Shown here: positions 28,329-35,958 of the stretch, piece by piece
How positions within the stretch are numbered: the first letter of the stretch is position 1
How the letters are laid out: every line of letters starts with the position of its first letter
Notes under the pieces: model-generated
What the model was told of the DNA's origin: nothing
The model's database searches: none
What the model saw: only the letters and a program-made list of their open reading frames with translations
Virus record (IMG/VR): IMGVR_UViG_3300032770_000019
Location: 8,495-72,494 of that record
Length of the DNA stretch: 64,000 nucleotides
Source: a virus
Direction: 5' to 3' (one strand)
Program-made: the position numbers and the translations under genes

Positions 28329-28721
28329 TTGCTAACACGTTTTGTTATCGGAGTAGATCCCGGTGGAGTATACACCGGTATAGCAGTATACAACGTAGAA
28401 GATCGAAGGTTCATTATCCACGGAGAATATGTCGAGCCGGACTCGGTGTGGAGTATCATTTGTCGATATCCGCGTTCGCAAACGCGGGTACTCGTAGAGG
28501 ACTTTCGCGGATCGGGAAGGCTTACTAAATATCGTAAGCGCACCATAGCAGTTCTCGGTTTTATCTACTGGAGCTGTAAGTACAACGGAATAGCAGTTGC
28601 GATGGTTATGCCGGATGCTCGATTGTCGAACGTTAGCAACGTACCGGCTGACATTCGAGGTAAGGACGAAATTGCGGCAGCAGCTCACGTACTTAGTTAC
28701 CTAGAGAGGAACAATGTATAG
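28329..28721 (+). CDS. RuvC-like resolvase
   Basis: VIGVDPGGVYTGIA, VLVEDF, DEIAAAAH. Confidence 0.7.
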   Translation: MLTRFVIGVDPGGVYTGIAVYNVEDRRFIIHGEYVEPDSVWSIICRYPRSQTRVLVEDFRGSGRLTKYRKRTIAVLGFIYWSCKYNGIAVAMVMPDARLSNVSNVPADIRGKDEIAAAAHVLSYLERNNV

Positions 28722-29133
28722 CATCAGCAAGGAGTTTGCGTTTAGCGCGGCTCATCGCTTGGATAAGCTACCAGCGGATCATCCGTGTTCACGCATTCAC
28801 GGACATAACTACGTCGTAACGGTAGTGCTAGCCCAAGCACGTGTAATGCCGCTGGAAGGTTGGATTCGTGACTTCGGTGACCTTGACAAGTTCAAGGACC
28901 ATATCGATACGTACTTCGACCACCGCTGGCTAGGACACGGTACGCTACTCGACGGAGATCCGGTTACTTCCGGAGATGGAACGTACACTACGCCAGCGAT
29001 AGGCTTCAATCCGACAGCCGAGAACCTGGCCAAGCACTTCTATGACATAGCAAGAGATACCTATCCGGAAACGTGGAAGGTAGGCGTAAGCGAAACGCCT
29101 AAGACGATTGCGTGGTATAGCAATGGCGCGTGA
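28714..29133 (+). CDS. queD: 6-carboxytetrahydropterin synthase
   Basis: FSAAHRL, CSRIHGHNY, DFGDL, FDH, PTAENLA, VSET. Confidence 0.95.
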   Translation: MYSISKEFAFSAAHRLDKLPADHPCSRIHGHNYVVTVVLAQARVMPLEGWIRDFGDLDKFKDHIDTYFDHRWLGHGTLLDGDPVTSGDGTYTTPAIGFNPTAENLAKHFYDIARDTYPETWKVGVSETPKTIAWYSNGA

Positions 29134-29884
29134 CTGGCTACTAGTTAGTGAGACGTTCTATACCCTACAAGGCGAAGGTCCGTCCAGCGGTACGCCTGCG
29201 TTCTTCGTTCGGCTAGGGTCGTGCGATCTATCGTGTAAGTGGTGCGATACTCCGTACACGTGGGCATTCGGCGACAAGGCCGAGCTGCACGAAAGCGGTA
29301 AGCGTTACACGCCACTTGAAGAGCTCGGTCGGGTACAGATCCTCGATGCTGTTAGCGAGATTCGTACACGTAAGCCTCCGCTGGTCGTTATTACCGGTGG
29401 CGAGCCGTTGCTGCAACTCGAATCGGTTGCGGTACTCGTCAGCGCGTGTAACGAAGAACCGAACGGTCCGCGCTTCGAAATCGAGACGGCAGGTACGCAC
29501 GCACCGTACGAGCTCGGAGTATTCGAAAACGTAAGCTTCAACGTATCGCCTAAGCTACGTTCCAGCGGTAACTCGGTCGAAAAGGCCTATAAGCCGGACG
29601 TGCTTGAAGCCTACTGCGGCCTTAAGAATCGAGTCCGCTGGAAGTTCGTACCTGAAACGCGTTTCGGTAGCTCCGCCGAGCTCGTTAGGGATATAGGCGA
29701 AATCGAAACTATCGTAGAAACGCACCGCATCGCACCTGGGGACGTATGGCTAATGCCGTGCGCCACGACCATCGAAGAGCTTGATCGAGGGCTGAAACTC
29801 CTTGCACCTGTAGTACTGGCACGCCACTGGAATCTCACCGATCGTACACATATCCGTATTTGGGGTAACTCGCGTGGACACTGA
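29123..29884 (+). CDS. queE: 7-carboxy-7-deazaguanine synthase (radical SAM)
   Basis: ETFYTLQGEG, FVRLGSCDLSCKWCDT (CxxxCxxC), ITGGEPLLQ, IETAG, VSPKL. Confidence 0.95.
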   Translation: MARDWLLVSETFYTLQGEGPSSGTPAFFVRLGSCDLSCKWCDTPYTWAFGDKAELHESGKRYTPLEELGRVQILDAVSEIRTRKPPLVVITGGEPLLQLESVAVLVSACNEEPNGPRFEIETAGTHAPYELGVFENVSFNVSPKLRSSGNSVEKAYKPDVLEAYCGLKNRVRWKFVPETRFGSSAELVRDIGEIETIVETHRIAPGDVWLMPCATTIEELDRGLKLLAPVVLARHWNLTDRTHIRIWGNSRGH

Positions 29885-30434
29885 TAAGCTAGAAAAGGCC
29901 GTACAGTCCATTCTAAAAGAGCTCGGTTACAAGCCCGATGAGCACATGAAACGGACGCCTGCTCGCGTAGCTGAATGGCTGATGGACTTCGAAGCAGTCG
30001 ATCTAAATGGCGCCGGTCGCATACTCGAAGTGGTATTTCCCGAGAACGTCCCCGGCTCGCTAGTTATCGTTGGACCGGTAGAGTATCGCTCACTATGTGC
30101 GCACCATCTCTTGCCGGTAAACGGTAAAGCGTGGGTTGGTTACCTTCCGGACGACGGTATCTGCGGCCTATCCAAGCTGGCGCGCTTGGTCGAATACTTC
30201 GCGACAAGGCTTACCGTTCAGGAACGCGTAACGAATCAGATCGCCGATGCGATTGAAGAGTTCCTTAAGCCGAAAGGTTGCATGGTCGTTGTTAGTGCTA
30301 CGCATATGTGCATGAGCTTCCGAGGAGTTCGTGACGGAGATGCGTCCACCGTTACCAGCGCAGTACGTGGCGTTCACGAGACAAGTGACAACGCACGAAG
30401 CGAATTTCTTTCGCTAATGAAAGGATACCGATGA
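29874..30434 (+). CDS. folE: GTP cyclohydrolase I
   Basis: TPARVA, SLCAHHLLP, GLSKLARLV, VQER, HMCMSFRG. Confidence 0.95.
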   Translation: MDTDKLEKAVQSILKELGYKPDEHMKRTPARVAEWLMDFEAVDLNGAGRILEVVFPENVPGSLVIVGPVEYRSLCAHHLLPVNGKAWVGYLPDDGICGLSKLARLVEYFATRLTVQERVTNQIADAIEEFLKPKGCMVVVSATHMCMSFRGVRDGDASTVTSAVRGVHETSDNARSEFLSLMKGYR

Positions 30435-31231
30435 AGCTGTCGCACCTGGTTCCAACGTCGATGCTGAGCGAGCTACCGGAACAACAGACAACGCATCTAG
30501 CGCTGGCGAATCTGATAACGGATGACGAAGAGTATCGAGACTTCTACTGTCGGCTAGTAACCAGCGGACATACGGTCATTCTCGATTACCCGGCTCACGA
30601 ACGTCTCGATATCGATCTTGAGCAGTGGTTGGGTGCCGTTGAGATTCTACGACCTTCCGCAGTCGTCCTACCGGACAGTATCGACAGCGCGGACGAAACG
30701 CTACTACAAGCGGGTATAGCAATTCGCATGCTGCTTCGAAAGACGCTTAACCAGACACCGGAGTATATCGGAGTACCGCACGGTAAAACGCAGAAGGAGT
30801 ACCTCGCGTGCGCCGAAAAGCTATGGCGATACGGCTGCCGCTGGTTCGGTATCTCTCTCGAACGGCAACTAAGCGATGCGGACGCTCTAAATCTTCGACA
30901 GCAGCGACTCGAAGGACTACTTACTAATACGTATACGAAAACCTCAAAGTATCACCTCCTCGGTATCTCGGAGACAGCTAGCGAGCTTATCGACCCGTTC
31001 TTTCAGGAGCATTGCGGAACGGCGGATGCTTCGAAATTCGCTGTCTGGTGGCTAACCAGCTGGGATAGTGCCGTTCCGTATCCGAAGGACGTTCCGATAA
31101 ACCGTCCGTATCCGGGGCGTAAAGCCCTTGGCGGAAGCGTAGATTACTTCAACTACTGCGGGGTAAGTACCGGACTCCAGTGGTATCTGGAGCGGTGGTC
31201 CGTCTTCGCTGAGAAAGGTGAACCTGAGTGA
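30431..31231 (+). CDS. Divergent TGT/DpdA-like TIM-barrel, candidate DNA 7-deazaguanine transglycosylase
   Basis: Motif order VILD..AHE / VLPD / GVPHG / HLLG / ADAS parallels TGT DSGG / FD / GIxQG / YLMG / FDC; embedded between folE and queC. Confidence 0.6.
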   Translation: MKLSHLVPTSMLSELPEQQTTHLALANLITDDEEYRDFYCRLVTSGHTVILDYPAHERLDIDLEQWLGAVEILRPSAVVLPDSIDSADETLLQAGIAIRMLLRKTLNQTPEYIGVPHGKTQKEYLACAEKLWRYGCRWFGISLERQLSDADALNLRQQRLEGLLTNTYTKTSKYHLLGISETASELIDPFFQEHCGTADASKFAVWWLTSWDSAVPYPKDVPINRPYPGRKALGGSVDYFNYCGVSTGLQWYLERWSVFAEKGEPE

Positions 31232-32538
31232 GTGGTATTTTTGCGAATCTAATTAGGACAGACGATGCCGGTATTCGCCACGACACGTTTATGCAAATTA
31301 AGCGTAGCGGAGATCGCGGTCGCGACGGACTCGGACTAGTTACCATTCGTGACGGTGAAATCGCCGAAGATCGCTCAATTGAAAGAAAAGCTTCAACGCT
31401 TCGCGAGCCCGGCTTTTCGACCAAATTCGACGGTACAGCATCGCAGCTAATCGGCTGCGCGTATAGTGGCGACTATGCTAATTCGTTTAAGAAAGCCGAA
31501 TCCGTTCCGCCGTTCGTTAGTTACGATCGCACTTGGGTCGTTTCGCTAGACGGTATCGTAGTCGGCCTTACCGGTCAGCAAGTAGCTGATACGCTTAGTC
31601 GTGACGGGTTCTCCTGCCTTCACGACTTCAAAGGACAGTTCGCGCTACTAGCGTTTCACGTTTCGCAGCCCAACCGTATCTACTTCGCGAATACGTCCAA
31701 GCCACTTTACGGTCTGTATGATTCGCTAGGTCGAGTCGTACGAGTAGCCAGCCAGCGGAAGTACTTCGAAAGCTTTTACCACCCGACGCGTTCACCGCAG
31801 CCGTTCGAGATGGGTCCGAATCTCTACGGAATGCTAAGCAGCGAGGGTATACTGTCTACGTACCCGCTACCCGTAGAGAAAGGTAGCGGCTCGCTGATAC
31901 TGTGCGGAGGTGGCCTGGATAGCCTAGTAGCTTCGTACGACGTAGCCGCACGTTTTCCCGATGAGCCACTAGCGTTGCTATTCTTCGACTACGGTCAGCG
32001 AGCAGCCGTACCCGAGTGGAAAGCTACGTGCGAAATTGCACACGCACTCGGTAAGCTACCCGGAGCAGTACAGCATCCGCTGCCATCCTTTAGCCATACC
32101 ACACTGGTCGAAGGTAATATCGAAACGACTCCGGTAGCGGGTGTGCCGTCCGAATGGTGTCCCGCACGGAATACGGTACTGATGGCGCACGCACTTAGCT
32201 ATGCCGAGGCAGGTAACTACGCTCGTATCGTAACCGGTATTAACGCTACAGCGGCCGATGCGTATGCAGACAACGAGAAGGAATGGCTTAACAAGTGTCG
32301 CTCGCTGGTTCCGTATGCCGTAAACGATCGTAGTATCGATCTTGTTGCGCCTCTCGAGAATCTAACTAAGACGGAGATCGTTAAGCTCGGGAAGGTGCTA
32401 AAGGTACCGTGGACCAGCTGGAGTTGCTACGGGGGCGGAGAAAAACACTGCGGGGAATGCTCAAGCTGTCGAGCTCGTAGAGCGGCGTTCCGAGGCGCAG
32501 GCGTAAAAGACTCTACCGAATACGAGTACACGCCATGA
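31228..32538 (+). CDS. queC: Gat-QueC fusion (degenerate class II glutaminase domain plus QueC)
   Basis: N-terminal MSGIF...DRGRDG; QueC motifs GGLDS, FDYGQR, PARN, YADN, TKTEIV, WSCY, HCGECSSC. Confidence 0.9.
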   Translation: MSGIFANLIRTDDAGIRHDTFMQIKRSGDRGRDGLGLVTIRDGEIAEDRSIERKASTLREPGFSTKFDGTASQLIGCAYSGDYANSFKKAESVPPFVSYDRTWVVSLDGIVVGLTGQQVADTLSRDGFSCLHDFKGQFALLAFHVSQPNRIYFANTSKPLYGLYDSLGRVVRVASQRKYFESFYHPTRSPQPFEMGPNLYGMLSSEGILSTYPLPVEKGSGSLILCGGGLDSLVASYDVAARFPDEPLALLFFDYGQRAAVPEWKATCEIAHALGKLPGAVQHPLPSFSHTTLVEGNIETTPVAGVPSEWCPARNTVLMAHALSYAEAGNYARIVTGINATAADAYADNEKEWLNKCRSLVPYAVNDRSIDLVAPLENLTKTEIVKLGKVLKVPWTSWSCYGGGEKHCGECSSCRARRAAFRGAGVKDSTEYEYTP

Positions 32539-32709: not shown

Positions 32710-35241
32710 GTGAAACGAACACTAAGTAACGGTTGTCACGGCTGTCCTTGGATACCGGGTAAGGGTCGAGGATGGTGCGGCGGTAGCGGACCAGCGAAGG
32801 CACGCTTGGTTATCGTTGGCGAGGGTCCCGGAGATACCGAAACCGTTACCGGTCGTCCTTTTAGCGGTAAGTCAGGCGAGCTGCTGAACGCAACGCTAAA
32901 AAAATGCGACATTAAGCGAAGTGAGTGCTATGGCACGAATTCGGTGCAGTGCAATATCAAGCCGAACTCCGCAGAGCTGGCTAGTTGCCGTCCTAGGCTT
33001 ATCGAAGAAATAAAGGCCAGGGGTCCTTCGCTGGTACTTGTCCTAGGAAAGATTGCGTGGCAGCAGCTCAGTGGCTCACGAGAAGCCCTCACAAACGTAA
33101 TCGGAACGCTATGGTGGCAGGAAGATATCGGTGTATGGCTCATACCGACCTGGCACCCAGCGGCCATCCTTCGGGGAGGTGGCGGTGACACGCGCTTTCC
33201 GGACTTCGCTAATGCGATATACCGTGCATCGCGCTTCCTCTCGGGTGCTGAGGACCTACCTGATCCGAGTCCGAAGGTACCGTTCCCTTGGACGTTTTTC
33301 CGTACTCCCGAAGGTGCAATAAAGGCATTCAAGTACTTTGAGCGACAGGCTGAACTTTACGGCAGACTGACAATTGCCGCGGACACTGAATCCCAATCAC
33401 CGGGCCGCTGGCCACACCCGGAAAGCGACCGCTGGCTGATGCATCAGATGTACGACGGAAAGAGGGCCTGTGCAATCGATATCACCGCACAAAACGAACG
33501 CAGCACAGCCTATCTACGTCGCCTACTTGCCAATAAGCGTATCATTTGGACGATGCATAACGGTGCAGCTTACGACCTCCGAGTCTTTCGTCATAATCTC
33601 GGAATGTGTCCTCCGGATGATAACGTACGGGATACTATGGTCCTGGGTATTGGCTTGTCGGAACGCAAACAGGCAATCGGTCTCGAGCCACTATCGCGAG
33701 TTTACCTCAACGCACCTGCGTACAAAAAGGCCCTCAAGAACAGTGGCTACCGACATGCTAAAGGCCCGCAAAACGAGCAGCAGTGGCGATTCCTAGCGCG
33801 CTATGGCGTTGAAGACGTCTATCTCGGTTGGCACCTCAATCGGGTACTTCCCGCCATAGTTCGTGAAGAAGGCACGATGGGCCTGTGCCGTAACGTTCTT
33901 ATGCCGCTGGCATTGACGTGCGGTCGAATAGCCGGTCGTGGCTTCGAAATAGATATGAAACAATTGCATAAGCTAAACGAGCTTTGGGGAGGAAAGGCAG
34001 CTGAGCTCACGGGGGAACTGCAAGAGCTGGCTACTGAAGCTGGCTGGCCTCTCTACCCGGAGATCGCTAAGGCGAAAGACGGGTTGTTTAATCCTCGTAG
34101 TCACCTACAGTTGGCTCATTTGGCGTACGATGTACTTGAGCTCAGCCCGACCGATGGTACAACTAATAGAAAGTACACTTCTAAGTGGGACGGCGGTCGT
34201 AGTCTTCGTAGCGTGGATCAAGATTTCTTGATGGGACACTCCGACACTAAGATGTGTCAGTTGATGTCGCGATTGCGTACCTACGATAAGCTGCACCGAA
34301 CATACGTTAAGACCATTGAGCGAGAGGTAGCTCTCGATCCTAACGGCCTAATTCATCCCGACTTTAAGTATGGTGATACGGTAACGGGTAGGCTGGTAGT
34401 TAGACCGCTACTTCAAGTGCTACCGCATTACGGAGCTCATAGCCAGCTGGCAGATGAGGACTTCGCACAAGAAACACGAAGAATGTTCCCGGCGAGAAAG
34501 GGTTACGTAATCGTTTCAGCTGACTTTAAGCAGCTGGAAATGAGGATAGCATGGGCACTCAGTGGCGACACGAAACTCGGAATTGCGCTGTCCAGCGGAG
34601 ACGTTCACGCGAACACCGCTTCGTATATGTTCCGCAAGCCAAAAGAAACGGTTACCAGCGGAGACCGTCATGCTGCGAAGCGGGTCTCCTTCGGTGTTGC
34701 CTACAACCGCAGTGCTTTTACGCTTGCGCGTGGTCCGCTGCTGGAGGTCTTGGGTGGCGTTGACGTATCCGAACATGTCCGTCAGGCGAAGGCACAGCAG
34801 TATATTGACGCGTTCTGGGACGGGTATCCGGACTACTATGCGTACCACCAGTGGTGCAAGGAGGAAGCACTCCGTACCCGTGAACTGACCACGCCATTCG
34901 GTAGAAAGCGCCGCTGGGGACTAATTACGGATGAAACTCGGCGAGAGATTGAGAATCAGGCGGTAAACTTCCCGATTCAGAGCACCGCTGGAGATATGTG
35001 CTCGATGTCCCTTGTACGGTGTGAAAAGGAGCTCGGAAGGCGCAAGCTCGGCTTTCCGTTGTACACAGTTCACGATGAAGTAGTATTCGAGCTTAAGATC
35101 GCAACGCTACCGCAGGCGCTTCGAGTAATCACCGACGTAATGACCGACCCGCCATTCGATGCCGGTGATGCGCAGTTCCCGATCGACATAAAGGTAGGCC
35201 CGAACCTAGGCGACCTAGAGCCGTGGACCGGAGTGCTATGA
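32710..35241 (+). CDS. Family A DNA polymerase with N-terminal family-4 uracil-DNA glycosylase and 3'-5' exonuclease domains
   Basis: UDG: CHGC, GEGPG..E..GRPFSGKSG, TNSVQC, WHPAAILR. Exo: DTES, HNGAAYD, YGVED. Pol: TGRL, ADFKQLEMR, R..AK..SFGVAY, NFPIQS, VHDE. Confidence 0.93.
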   Translation: MKRTLSNGCHGCPWIPGKGRGWCGGSGPAKARLVIVGEGPGDTETVTGRPFSGKSGELLNATLKKCDIKRSECYGTNSVQCNIKPNSAELASCRPRLIEEIKARGPSLVLVLGKIAWQQLSGSREALTNVIGTLWWQEDIGVWLIPTWHPAAILRGGGGDTRFPDFANAIYRASRFLSGAEDLPDPSPKVPFPWTFFRTPEGAIKAFKYFERQAELYGRLTIAADTESQSPGRWPHPESDRWLMHQMYDGKRACAIDITAQNERSTAYLRRLLANKRIIWTMHNGAAYDLRVFRHNLGMCPPDDNVRDTMVLGIGLSERKQAIGLEPLSRVYLNAPAYKKALKNSGYRHAKGPQNEQQWRFLARYGVEDVYLGWHLNRVLPAIVREEGTMGLCRNVLMPLALTCGRIAGRGFEIDMKQLHKLNELWGGKAAELTGELQELATEAGWPLYPEIAKAKDGLFNPRSHLQLAHLAYDVLELSPTDGTTNRKYTSKWDGGRSLRSVDQDFLMGHSDTKMCQLMSRLRTYDKLHRTYVKTIEREVALDPNGLIHPDFKYGDTVTGRLVVRPLLQVLPHYGAHSQLADEDFAQETRRMFPARKGYVIVSADFKQLEMRIAWALSGDTKLGIALSSGDVHANTASYMFRKPKETVTSGDRHAAKRVSFGVAYNRSAFTLARGPLLEVLGGVDVSEHVRQAKAQQYIDAFWDGYPDYYAYHQWCKEEALRTRELTTPFGRKRRWGLITDETRREIENQAVNFPIQSTAGDMCSMSLVRCEKELGRRKLGFPLYTVHDEVVFELKIATLPQALRVITDVMTDPPFDAGDAQFPIDIKVGPNLGDLEPWTGVL

Positions 35242-35418
35242 TCTATACGACACAGGAAGGCGTATGGCATAATCACCGCAAGTGTCAGTGGGAGTATATG
35301 AGTCGGGCTGGACAGTGCGTAGCGTGGATAACGGATGAGATGCTGTATCGTGCCGTTCCGGAGATGCTGCTACAGCATCATAGCCACGTAATCCGGGCTA
35401 TTGCGAGAGAGGCATTTC

Positions 35419-35958
35419 ATGGACTGGTTTGACGTAATAGCAGACAAGCGAGTGCCGCCAGGTCTTGCTATTCTAGTAAGTGGGGAGAGCGTTGTGGCGA
35501 TGCAAGGGTATACTACAATTGAGCAGAGCGGCGAAGAAGTGTGGATACCGGCTCCGCTGGTTGATGCGATCAAGGTGATGGTCGGTACCTTCCAAGCGAA
35601 GAGCGCTGACTACTCGGACACCGATGATCAGTGGGATAGCAACTTTGCGATGACCGCTGAGCAGTTCGATCTTAATCGATACGAAGCATGCGAGTTTAAC
35701 GTTGTTCAAAAGCTAGCGCGACTACGTGCCCTTAGGCGTAGAGGAACTGCTCCGGTAAACGAATCGGTAGAAGACACCTATCGTGACATGATGAACTACG
35801 CCACCTACGCGTACGCACTTTACCTAGAGGAAACTGCGCCAAAACCCGCCAAAGTGGACACGCAGATCGAGCAGTATACCCTGCCCAAAGACCCAGCTCA
35901 GGACGCGGTCTCTCGGGGCGTGGACAGACATGCAGGTCACCAGACACCGACCACCTGA
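35419..35958 (+). CDS. Nucleotide-modification-associated domain 1 (DUF1599-like) protein
   Basis: KSADY...NF...KLARL...NESVEDTYRDMMNYA. Confidence 0.75.
   Translation: MDWFDVIADKRVPPGLAILVSGESVVAMQGYTTIEQSGEEVWIPAPLVDAIKVMVGTFQAKSADYSDTDDQWDSNFAMTAEQFDLNRYEACEFNVVQKLARLRALRRRGTAPVNESVEDTYRDMMNYATYAYALYLEETAPKPAKVDTQIEQYTLPKDPAQDAVSRGVDRHAGHQTPTT

Follow-up and report, generated by a model that had tools for sequence, protein, structure and literature searches.

We describe here a gene at positions 30431..31231 (+ strand) of a 64,000-nucleotide window, the whole stretch of viral DNA that was analysed, which comprises bases 8495-72494 of the 72,494-bp IMG/VR virus record IMGVR_UViG_3300032770_000019 (CheckV completeness about 98%). 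The open reading frame (ORF) begins with ATG and encodes 266 aa. Its product is a predicted 7-deazaguanine transglycosylase of the DpdA3 family, a (beta/alpha)8 barrel without a zinc (Zn) subdomain according to an AlphaFold2 model, matches in the PDB and profile-profile alignment with hhalign.

The ORF sits inside a 7-deazaguanine pathway, as a first-pass annotation of the window had proposed. On its 5' side lie genes for QueD (6-carboxy-tetrahydropterin synthase, 28714..29133, +; PF01242, E 3.1e-27; phrog_2389), QueE (radical-SAM synthase of 7-carboxy-7-deazaguanine (CDG), 29108..29884, +; PF04055, E 1.2e-7; 45-52% identical in syntenic loci) and FolE (GTP cyclohydrolase I, 29874..30434, +; PF01227, E 8.8e-54). 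On its 3' side lies Gat-QueC, a fusion of a class-II amidotransferase-like domain (GATase_7, E 0.0059) with a preQ0 synthase (QueC, PF06508, E 2.3e-40) at 31228..32538 (+). The ATG of the ORF overlaps the FolE stop codon (ATGA), with AAGGA 6-10 nucleotides upstream, and its TGA overlaps the GTG start of the Gat-QueC gene (GTGA). The ORF is a real gene, translationally coupled within a QueD-QueE-FolE-ORF-GatQueC operon.

Fold and conserved residues

AlphaFold2, supplied with a 27-row alignment, produced a model of eight alternating strands and helices (mean pLDDT 93.0, pTM 0.91). When this model was compared with the PDB using Foldseek, the first match was the DNA preQ0 insertase DpdA (7ui4; E 3.5e-6, TM-score 0.51 by query), and all remaining matches listed were tRNA-guanine transglycosylases (TGTs). 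Alignment of the Foldseek list with VIA-align gave Z 17.8 for the Z. mobilis TGT, with a root-mean-square deviation of 3.4 A over 233 aligned residues. A scan of 48,161 representative chains, made independently of Foldseek, ranked the P. horikoshii archaeosine TGT (Z 16.8), a bacterial TGT (16.4), DpdA (15.8) and QTRT2 (14.9) as its top four. Structure prediction is therefore in line with the TGT-type fold suggested from the letters alone: a (beta/alpha)8 TIM barrel whose best solved matches are TGTs and DpdA. Among predicted viral structures in BFVD the match was to a protein of phage phiST (M4SLA5, 259 aa; TM-score 0.70/0.71, E 2.4e-12). A structure search of the ESM Atlas returned viral clusters, one mostly Actinomycetota cluster and archaeal TGTs, and one matched cluster has PF23859 (DpdA) in 17% of its members. 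Isoelectric points spoke neither for DNA binding nor against it.

Residue conservation was read from 27 sequences, the window's own protein and 26 others recovered by a word-indexed search at E <= 1e-3. These 26 are 34-47% identical to the query and nearly all 252-292 aa long, with one 217-aa fragment. Invariant throughout the set are D52, H56, E57, P81, D82, H117, G140, S142, L143, E144, H175, G178 and D199, together with Y227-R230 (YPGR) and G234-G235 towards the C-terminus. Among 146 wider relatives G178 is kept without exception (146/146), and D52, E57, P81, D82, V115, G118, G140, H175, L177 and D199 are each kept by at least 90%. With phmmer, run exhaustively, 601 cluster representatives came up at E <= 1e-3; 108 of them reach E <= 1e-10 and 15 reach E <= 1e-30.

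The acidic and glycine motifs picked out in the first-pass annotation are all present in the translation and follow the order seen in TGT, and hhalign aligned them with the catalytic positions of canonical phage DpdA. For this comparison a canonical alignment was assembled from the DpdA proteins of phages 9g, CAjan, Dp-1 and Rosebush plus four relatives; the 146-relative profile matched it at 90.6% (E 1.3e-6, 187 columns). Motif 1, ILDYPAHE (aa 50-57; 30578..30601, this and the following motifs all on the + strand), departs from the DSG type, as had been remarked, and reads ILDNPVHE in the query's clade. Its D52 closes strand E48-52 and pairs with D72 of 9g DpdA; it is the predicted general acid/base and would correspond to the Asp in the DSG(A/G)F motif of DpdA1 and TGT. 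The corresponding motif of a sister clade, VILDSxAFE, resembles FLDSGAFS of 9g DpdA and TDSGGFQ of E. coli TGT. In motif 2, LPD (aa 80-82; 30668..30676), D82 aligns with D114 of 9g DpdA and has a predicted role in base recognition. Motif 3, VPHG (aa 115-118; 30773..30784), carries H117, aligned with H141 of 9g DpdA.

Further along the barrel, the beta6 loop GISLE (aa 140-144; 30848..30862) is paired with LGGL of 9g DpdA, and its G140, S142, L143 and E144 do not vary within the clade. HLLGISE (aa 175-181; 30953..30973) stands at the end of beta7, and its HLLGIS part pairs with VHGFGIT of 9g DpdA. ADASK (aa 198-202; 31022..31036) contains D199, the predicted nucleophile, which closes strand E197-199 and pairs with D215 (CDSSSW) of 9g DpdA. 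A last motif, YPGR...GGS (aa 227-236; 31109..31138), is limited to the 74-row set that holds the query in the tree described below, the sister group included. In the model the putative catalytic residues sit at the C-terminal ends of beta3, beta4, beta5, beta7 and beta8 or immediately beyond them, on the side that in a TIM barrel is the catalytic face.

These positions can be set beside the active site of bacterial DpdA. In the part of Gedara et al. 2023 (PMC10164549) drawn on throughout, D95 acts as the general acid/base and D256 as the nucleophile, recognition of the base falls to D130 and H181, and G182, G206 and G207 are further active-site residues; the three aspartates are invariant across both DpdA and TGT. 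H117-G118 would be the counterpart of H181-G182, and by analogy with that enzyme (PMC10164549) GISLE is probably the clade's version of the Gly-rich loop that lines the pocket for the 7-substituent in TGT and DpdA. The expectation that the catalytic aspartates of the ORF protein correspond to those of TGT and DpdA is borne out at the level of profile alignment and strand position, and the match to D95/D130/D256 of the bacterial enzyme runs through canonical phage DpdA and the shared DSGxF motif.

With bacterial DpdA (S. Montevideo, 7UI4) and the TGTs of Z. mobilis, P. horikoshii and human (QTRT1), the ORF protein thus has in common the (beta/alpha)8 barrel, the three invariant aspartates (here D52, D82 and D199) and the H/Q-G position, in the same order. 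It differs from them in having no Zn site, no large insertions and no N-terminal beta-lid, and identity is 9-15%. In the bacterial enzyme the insertion Ins8 makes up 30% of the protein and Zn is bound by C368/C370/C373/H395 (PMC10164549). The ORF protein has five cysteines (40, 127, 136, 195 and 243) without a CxCxxC...H pattern, so the earlier observation that it lacks a Zn-binding tail holds; C127 is the only cysteine invariant among the 27 homologues.

A sole candidate and its family

The first reading had recognised no canonical DpdA elsewhere in the window, and this extends to the full 72,494-bp genome. Across its 508 stop-to-stop frames of at least 60 aa, searches with 9g DpdA1, a hidden Markov model (HMM) of DpdA1, E. 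coli TGT, the DpdA4 of HVTV-1, the DpdA proteins of CAjan, Dp-1 and Rosebush, and a canonical-DpdA HMM matched no frame other than this ORF. A Pfam TGT search of the genome was also negative, which carries little weight alone because the models PF01702 and PF23859 found nothing in phages 9g, CAjan, Rosebush, nt-1 and Dp-1 either; the literature reports DpdA for all five, and we located the gene in four of them. A tblastn search of a phage collection with E. coli TGT gave bacterial-type TGTs only and no phage DpdA. These sequence searches leave the ORF as the pathway's only candidate for base exchange.

Short DpdA proteins of this kind have been described. In the portion of Cui et al. 2023 (NAR 51:9214, PMC10516641) on which we rely here, DpdA3 is a distant TGT/DpdA homologue, named for phiST CGPG_00065, CP220 gp056 and immuto gp64 and defined by PSI-BLAST from these proteins, and DpdA4 is the DUF6610 protein of Halovirus HVTV-1; both are about 260 aa long, Zn-less and invisible to Pfam.

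Several comparisons connect the ORF protein with DpdA3. Its sole PHROG match is phrog_20335 (E 1.7e-5), on which phiST DpdA3 scores 627.6 bits. Against 50,697 phage records, tblastn of the query found immuto phages only (4/4 records), where the gene is annotated DpdA, and tblastn of the relative P0011 found immuto and phiST-like Cellulophaga phages (9/9 records). When 171 superfamily representatives were searched with phmmer, phiST DpdA3 matched 164, immuto DpdA3 138, CP220 DpdA3 73 and HVTV-1 DpdA4 none. An HMM built from the three published DpdA3 proteins alone recovers the query at 53.5 bits (E 1.4e-18) over aa 1-179, and identity to these references by tblastn is about 27%, in the N-terminal half only. 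Profile against profile, the 37-row clade that holds the query matches the three DpdA3 proteins at 99.5% (E 3.1e-22, 207 columns) and each of them singly at 97.5-98.3%. Against the 85 rows outside the 74-row set, the three references included, the match is full-length (100%, E 2.4e-58, 245 columns). The same clade reaches 86.7% with the eight canonical phage DpdA proteins and 6.3% with the HVTV-1 core alone. On the strength of these profile comparisons, with DpdA3 on one side and DpdA4 and canonical DpdA on the other, we assign the ORF product by sequence to the DpdA3 family. Like the phiST, CP220 and immuto proteins it is a Zn-less barrel of about 260 aa that the Pfam TGT model does not see, encoded with FolE, QueD and QueE in a tailed phage as the sole DpdA, and it shares with them full-length profile homology and, with phiST, a PHROG and a TM-score of 0.70. 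It differs from the references in motif 1 (DNPVHE or DYPAHE against a DNGA type), in a beta6 loop and a C-terminal motif of its own, and in its gene neighbourhood: it is linked to QueC or Gat-QueC in a phage without thymidylate kinase, MazG or phosphoribosyltransferase (PRTase), all of which occur in the reference phages, where all G is replaced.

Other assignments were tried and set aside. DpdA4/DUF6610 (PF20314; HVTV-1 gene 69) is likewise a short, Zn-less, TGT-like barrel with VPHG and HLLG motifs, but it belongs to other PHROGs, comes from an archaeal virus and has an acidic N-terminal extension; neither the ORF nor the genome matches PF20314, and the 37-row clade does not align convincingly with the HVTV-1 core, as given above. 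PF20314 touches 21 of the 27 close relatives at E <= 0.1. When six close relatives were scanned singly against its cut-off of 27 bits, one passed (P0011, 34.3 bits), four scored below it and one gave nothing, compared with 192.3 bits for HVTV-1. As for canonical DpdA1 or DpdA2, phmmer and hmmsearch against the DpdA proteins of 9g, CAjan, Dp-1 and Rosebush gave nothing at E < 0.05, and similarity appears at the profile-profile level only (86.7-90.6%); against a low-diversity alignment of 9g-type DpdA1 the family profile scored 25% (E 7.8e-4). Nor is it a TGT (PF01702) or bacterial DpdA (PF23859) in the narrow sense: it gives no Pfam match, though these models also miss known phage DpdA1/2, and it has no CxCx2C...H Zn site; PF23859 is touched by one of the 27 relatives (E 0.035). 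In sequence searches of the PDB, phmmer of the query gave chance-level rows only.

A FastTree phylogeny of 160 rows, rooted on the HVTV-1 core, served to place the query within the superfamily. Besides that core it took in the three DpdA3 references, 146 representatives at full length and the C-terminal parts of ten fused forms; of the 171 representatives, 15 were omitted, being either under 235 aa or long forms of another kind. The query falls in the 37-row clade (support 100) inside the 74-row set (support 98). The motifs DNPVHE (motif 1), GISLERRL (beta6 loop) and YPGR..GGS (near the C-terminus) mark the clade, or the clade with its sister. This clade is distinct, well supported and without a characterised member, and profile comparison places it within the published DpdA3 family. 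The suggestion that the ORF might found a new DpdA subfamily is therefore only partly right, because short Zn-less DpdAs were already described in 2023 and the protein is a full-length homologue of the three published DpdA3 proteins; what stands is a separate, uncharacterised clade with motifs of its own. A scan of 185,579 species genomes with two peptide patterns only gave 74 pattern matches and no relative of the clade, which is not proof of absence.

Gene neighbourhood and the Gat-QueC partner

Downstream of the operon lies a family-A DNA polymerase gene (PolA, 32710-35241), whose product has an N-terminal UDG-superfamily domain (PF03167, E 2.6e-26) followed by 3'-5' exonuclease and polymerase domains. 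Just 3' of it, a 185-aa ORF (35401-35958) matches DUF1599, 'Nucleotide modification associated domain 1' (E 8.1e-7), and could be a further part of the DNA-modification module. Further upstream of the cassette the phage encodes a DUF669 protein, a Sak4-like annealing protein and a nuclease resembling Holliday-junction resolvases. PADLOC gave no match for the ORF, and an ATPase partner of the DpdB type was not recognised, though no search aimed at DpdB was made.

The arrangement recurs in related IMG/VR loci, which are interrelated, so that the counts below are not independent events, and the tblastn panel (E <= 1e-5) can miss divergent genes. In 12 of 12 loci of close relatives (38-45% identity) a QueC-type gene and then a UDG-PolA gene lie 3' of the ORF homologue, and QueE and FolE precede it in all 11 that have upstream sequence. 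The QueC-type gene is a full Gat-QueC in three of the 12, has a partial Gat match in one and is QueC only in eight. All seven sister-group loci show the order Sak4...QueD-QueE-FolE-gene-GatQueC...PolA; these phages are much more distant, as their PolA is only 34-39% identical. The clade is linked to QueC or Gat-QueC in every locus examined. The fusion of a UDG-superfamily domain to a family-A polymerase is kept in all 19 related loci examined.

For a wider set we collected 80 IMG/VR loci (L037-L116) with a profile of fused relatives and counted genes within 7 kb. At least one of FolE (59 loci), QueE (49), QueD (45) and QueC (42) is present in 64 of them. Loci L039-L048, on contigs of about 50 kb, carry unfused DpdA3-like genes that are 43-46% identical to the barrel part of the kinase fusions described below, and have none of FolE, QueD, QueE and QueC within this distance.

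The cassette as a whole resembles that of Enterobacteria phage 9g and relatives such as CAjan, where QueE, Gat-QueC, QueD, FolE, DpdA and polymerase occur together. The 9g DpdA1 gene (FH31_gp03) adjoins the FolE and polymerase genes, a position equivalent to that of the ORF, and the two enzymes share aligned Asp/His/Asp positions and the same predicted chemistry. Homology between them is remote, being visible to hhalign and not to HMMER, and 9g DpdA is longer (317 aa) and has a DSGAF motif.

The Gat-QueC proteins differ at the N-terminal nucleophile. That of the window is 29% identical to 9g Gat-QueC over both domains (E 6e-43). Class-II amidotransferases use Cys1 as their nucleophile. The N-terminal nucleophile is Cys in 9g (L026) and in 6/6 sister-group copies examined (L027-L032), but Ser (M/V-S-G-I/L) in 4/4 full-length copies of the query's clade (window 31228-31245; L002, L009 and L013). 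In the window a stop codon stands immediately before the GTG start, so that the frame cannot reach further 5'. In eight related phages the Gat domain has been lost altogether. From these sequences, the Gat domain may be decaying or may be a Ser-nucleophile variant; with Ser in place of Cys, the end product may be dPreQ0, as in the eight relatives without Gat.

Proposed activity and its alternatives

We consider it likely, from sequence comparison and the structural model, that the ORF product is the 7-deazaguanine transglycosylase of this phage, a minimal DpdA3 protein built as a (beta/alpha)8 barrel and acting on DNA. FolE, QueD and QueE would convert GTP to CDG, and the QueC part of Gat-QueC would convert CDG to preQ0. 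The ORF product would then swap guanine in phage double-stranded DNA for preQ0 by the double-displacement reaction of TGT and DpdA, as DpdA1 does in 9g and CAjan: D199 would attack C1' to give an intermediate in which enzyme and DNA are covalently joined, D52 serving as general acid/base. The Gat domain may next yield dG+, or, with its Ser nucleophile, the end product may stay dPreQ0; either modification would shield the phage DNA from restriction. The predicted product is dPreQ0 and/or dG+ in phage DNA, and from gene context a preference for preQ0/G+ rather than CDG, DG, ADG or preQ1 is plausible. The analysis itself establishes the fold, the family, the conserved residues, the gene context and the lack of a second such gene in the genome; we infer what the catalytic residues do, that the substrate is DNA and not a nucleotide, which base is inserted and how far guanine is replaced. 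In the sections of Cui et al. cited, DpdA3 is proposed as the inserting enzyme of DpdA3 phages, and DpdA1 inserts preQ0 in the DNA of 9g and CAjan (PMC10516641).

A number of observations weigh against this assignment or its details. In the 48,161-chain scan the fifth row is a class II aldolase at Z 14.4, which leaves a small margin between the top four (14.9-16.8) and generic TIM barrels. The residue equivalences come from profile alignment, not from structural superposition. Pfam and NCBIfam models do not match the ORF protein; the 146-relative profile, run against PDB sequences, returned chance-level rows only and no TGT or DpdA; and hhalign of the family profile with single sequences is weak, at 0.8% for E. 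coli TGT and 28.7% for HVTV-1 DpdA4. In the tree the three DpdA3 references fall apart from the query's 74-row set, in a group of 8 rows (support 82); the nodes joining the two have support of 42-54, several branches are flagged as long, and one DpdA4 branch, itself long, serves as the root. Moreover, DpdA3 and DpdA4 did not work in the E. coli assay of Cui et al., so that, as far as the part of that paper used here goes, DNA-level activity has never been directly shown for any DpdA3 (PMC10516641). Finally, fusions to kinase and dGTP-diphosphohydrolase domains elsewhere in the superfamily hint that some members act on nucleotides.

These fusions are the basis of an alternative that we regard as unlikely, in which the base is exchanged on free dG, dGMP or dGTP, and the product is phosphorylated and built in by the phage PolA. 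Ten of the 171 superfamily representatives are fused to an N-terminal P-loop domain resembling deoxynucleoside kinase (dNK) or thymidylate kinase (PF01712, best E 8.5e-9), and in one the fusion partner is a dATP/dGTP diphosphohydrolase domain (PF18909, E 1e-14); the fused relatives are P0089, P0098, P0114, P0117, P0123, P0133, P0135, P0146, P0167, P0168 and P0107. All three of the reference DpdA3 genes adjoin or lie near genes for thymidylate kinase and/or a MazG-like pyrophosphohydrolase, and the ORF protein is, in its model, a bare barrel without an obvious nucleic-acid-binding insertion. According to the text used from Cui et al., the reference DpdA3 phages replace 100% of G, and DpdA3 left E. 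coli DNA unmodified (PMC10516641). Yet all ten kinase fusions belong to one 29-row clade outside the query's 74-row set. Within the 80 wider loci, the kinase domain occurs in ten, nine of which have no QueC, and 41 of the 42 loci with QueC have no kinase; because the two rarely co-occur, the QueC-linked type to which the query belongs looks like a different functional class. This suggests two classes, possibly with insertion at the nucleotide level in one and at the DNA level in the other. In the phage itself, no dNK, thymidylate kinase, MazG, PRTase or dGTP diphosphohydrolase family was found among 47 non-structural ORFs at E <= 1e-4, and the cassette is built like the one in 9g, where DpdA1 works on DNA in the account drawn from Cui et al. 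(PMC10516641). Our searches of the literature on DpdA3, 7-deazaguanine and pre-replicative phage modification found no proposal of a nucleotide-level route, and the DpdA literature since 2023, judged by titles and the beginnings of abstracts, held nothing further on DpdA3. The broadest form of the idea, that the whole DpdA3-like superfamily exchanges bases on nucleosides or nucleotides and feeds 7-deaza-dGTP analogues to the phage polymerase before replication, also seems improbable to us; if true, it would explain the kinase and diphosphohydrolase fusions, and also why the reference phages replace G completely and why DpdA3 failed in the assay. In a milder version, the QueC-linked clade may form a separate kind of DNA transglycosylase, specific for preQ0/G+ and with a Ser-nucleophile Gat-QueC as its partner; such an enzyme could yield genomes with full dPreQ0 or dG+ substitution, which would be the first of their kind.

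It could also be asked whether the clade is a sixth DpdA subfamily, separate from DpdA3 in sequence and in substrate, for example as a preQ0/G+-specific DNA transglycosylase. We think this quite unlikely, even though the clade and its set stand apart from the references in the tree with the support values given, identity to the references is low and confined to the N-terminal half, the three motifs named above are invariant and specific to the clade, and the last 55 residues or so, with the YPGR...GGS region, stay outside the narrow hhalign alignment with the published DpdA3 proteins. The tie to QueC or Gat-QueC points the same way, as the reference DpdA3 phages make DG, ADG or formyl-preQ1 according to the part of Cui et al. 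used (PMC10516641), and so do the scattered contacts of close relatives with the DpdA4 model PF20314, one of which passes the cut-off. However, the DpdA3 references are as distant from one another as from the query, and tblastn with immuto DpdA3 listed no Cellulophaga phage and so missed phiST. The phiST DpdA3, in turn, matches nearly all of the representatives found with the query, and the profile match of the clade to the rest of the superfamily runs over the full length. Such sequences may, besides, already be held in the supplementary homologue lists of Cui et al. That the ORF protein performs no base exchange, being an unrelated TIM barrel or a dead scaffold, or that it is a tRNA-modifying TGT instead of a DNA enzyme, we judge highly improbable. 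Other TIM-barrel families do score nearly as high (Z 14.4 and below), and a Pfam match is lacking; but the Asp-Asp-His-Gly-Asp pattern is conserved in 146 sequences and aligned with canonical DpdA, the place of the gene inside the 7-deazaguanine operon is obligate, and no other enzyme of the genome could use the product of the pathway. As for tRNA, the window holds no tRNA gene and the protein lacks PUA or Zn tRNA-binding parts.

Pfam families found in other ORFs of the phage, namely DUF397, Rv2525c-like, Rv2179c-like, NlpC/P60, an Rpf-type transglycosylase-like domain and LysM, suggest an actinobacterial host. The only public sequencing run that holds this DNA is a wetland metagenome, stored as contigs and possibly the source sample.

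Looking forward, 7-deazaguanine modifications of DNA protect phage genomes against restriction enzymes and against some CRISPR nucleases, and DpdA is the signature gene by which they are predicted. DpdA3-type genes that are invisible to Pfam and NCBIfam are widespread in uncultivated phages, as the 601 cluster representatives indicate, and one large uncharacterised clade stands in for DpdA1 in an otherwise 9g-like preQ0/G+ cassette. The conserved residues reported here offer positions for mutation, the modified base is predicted, and the split between kinase-fused members without QueC and unfused members with QueC could guide experiments that distinguish action on DNA from action on nucleotides.

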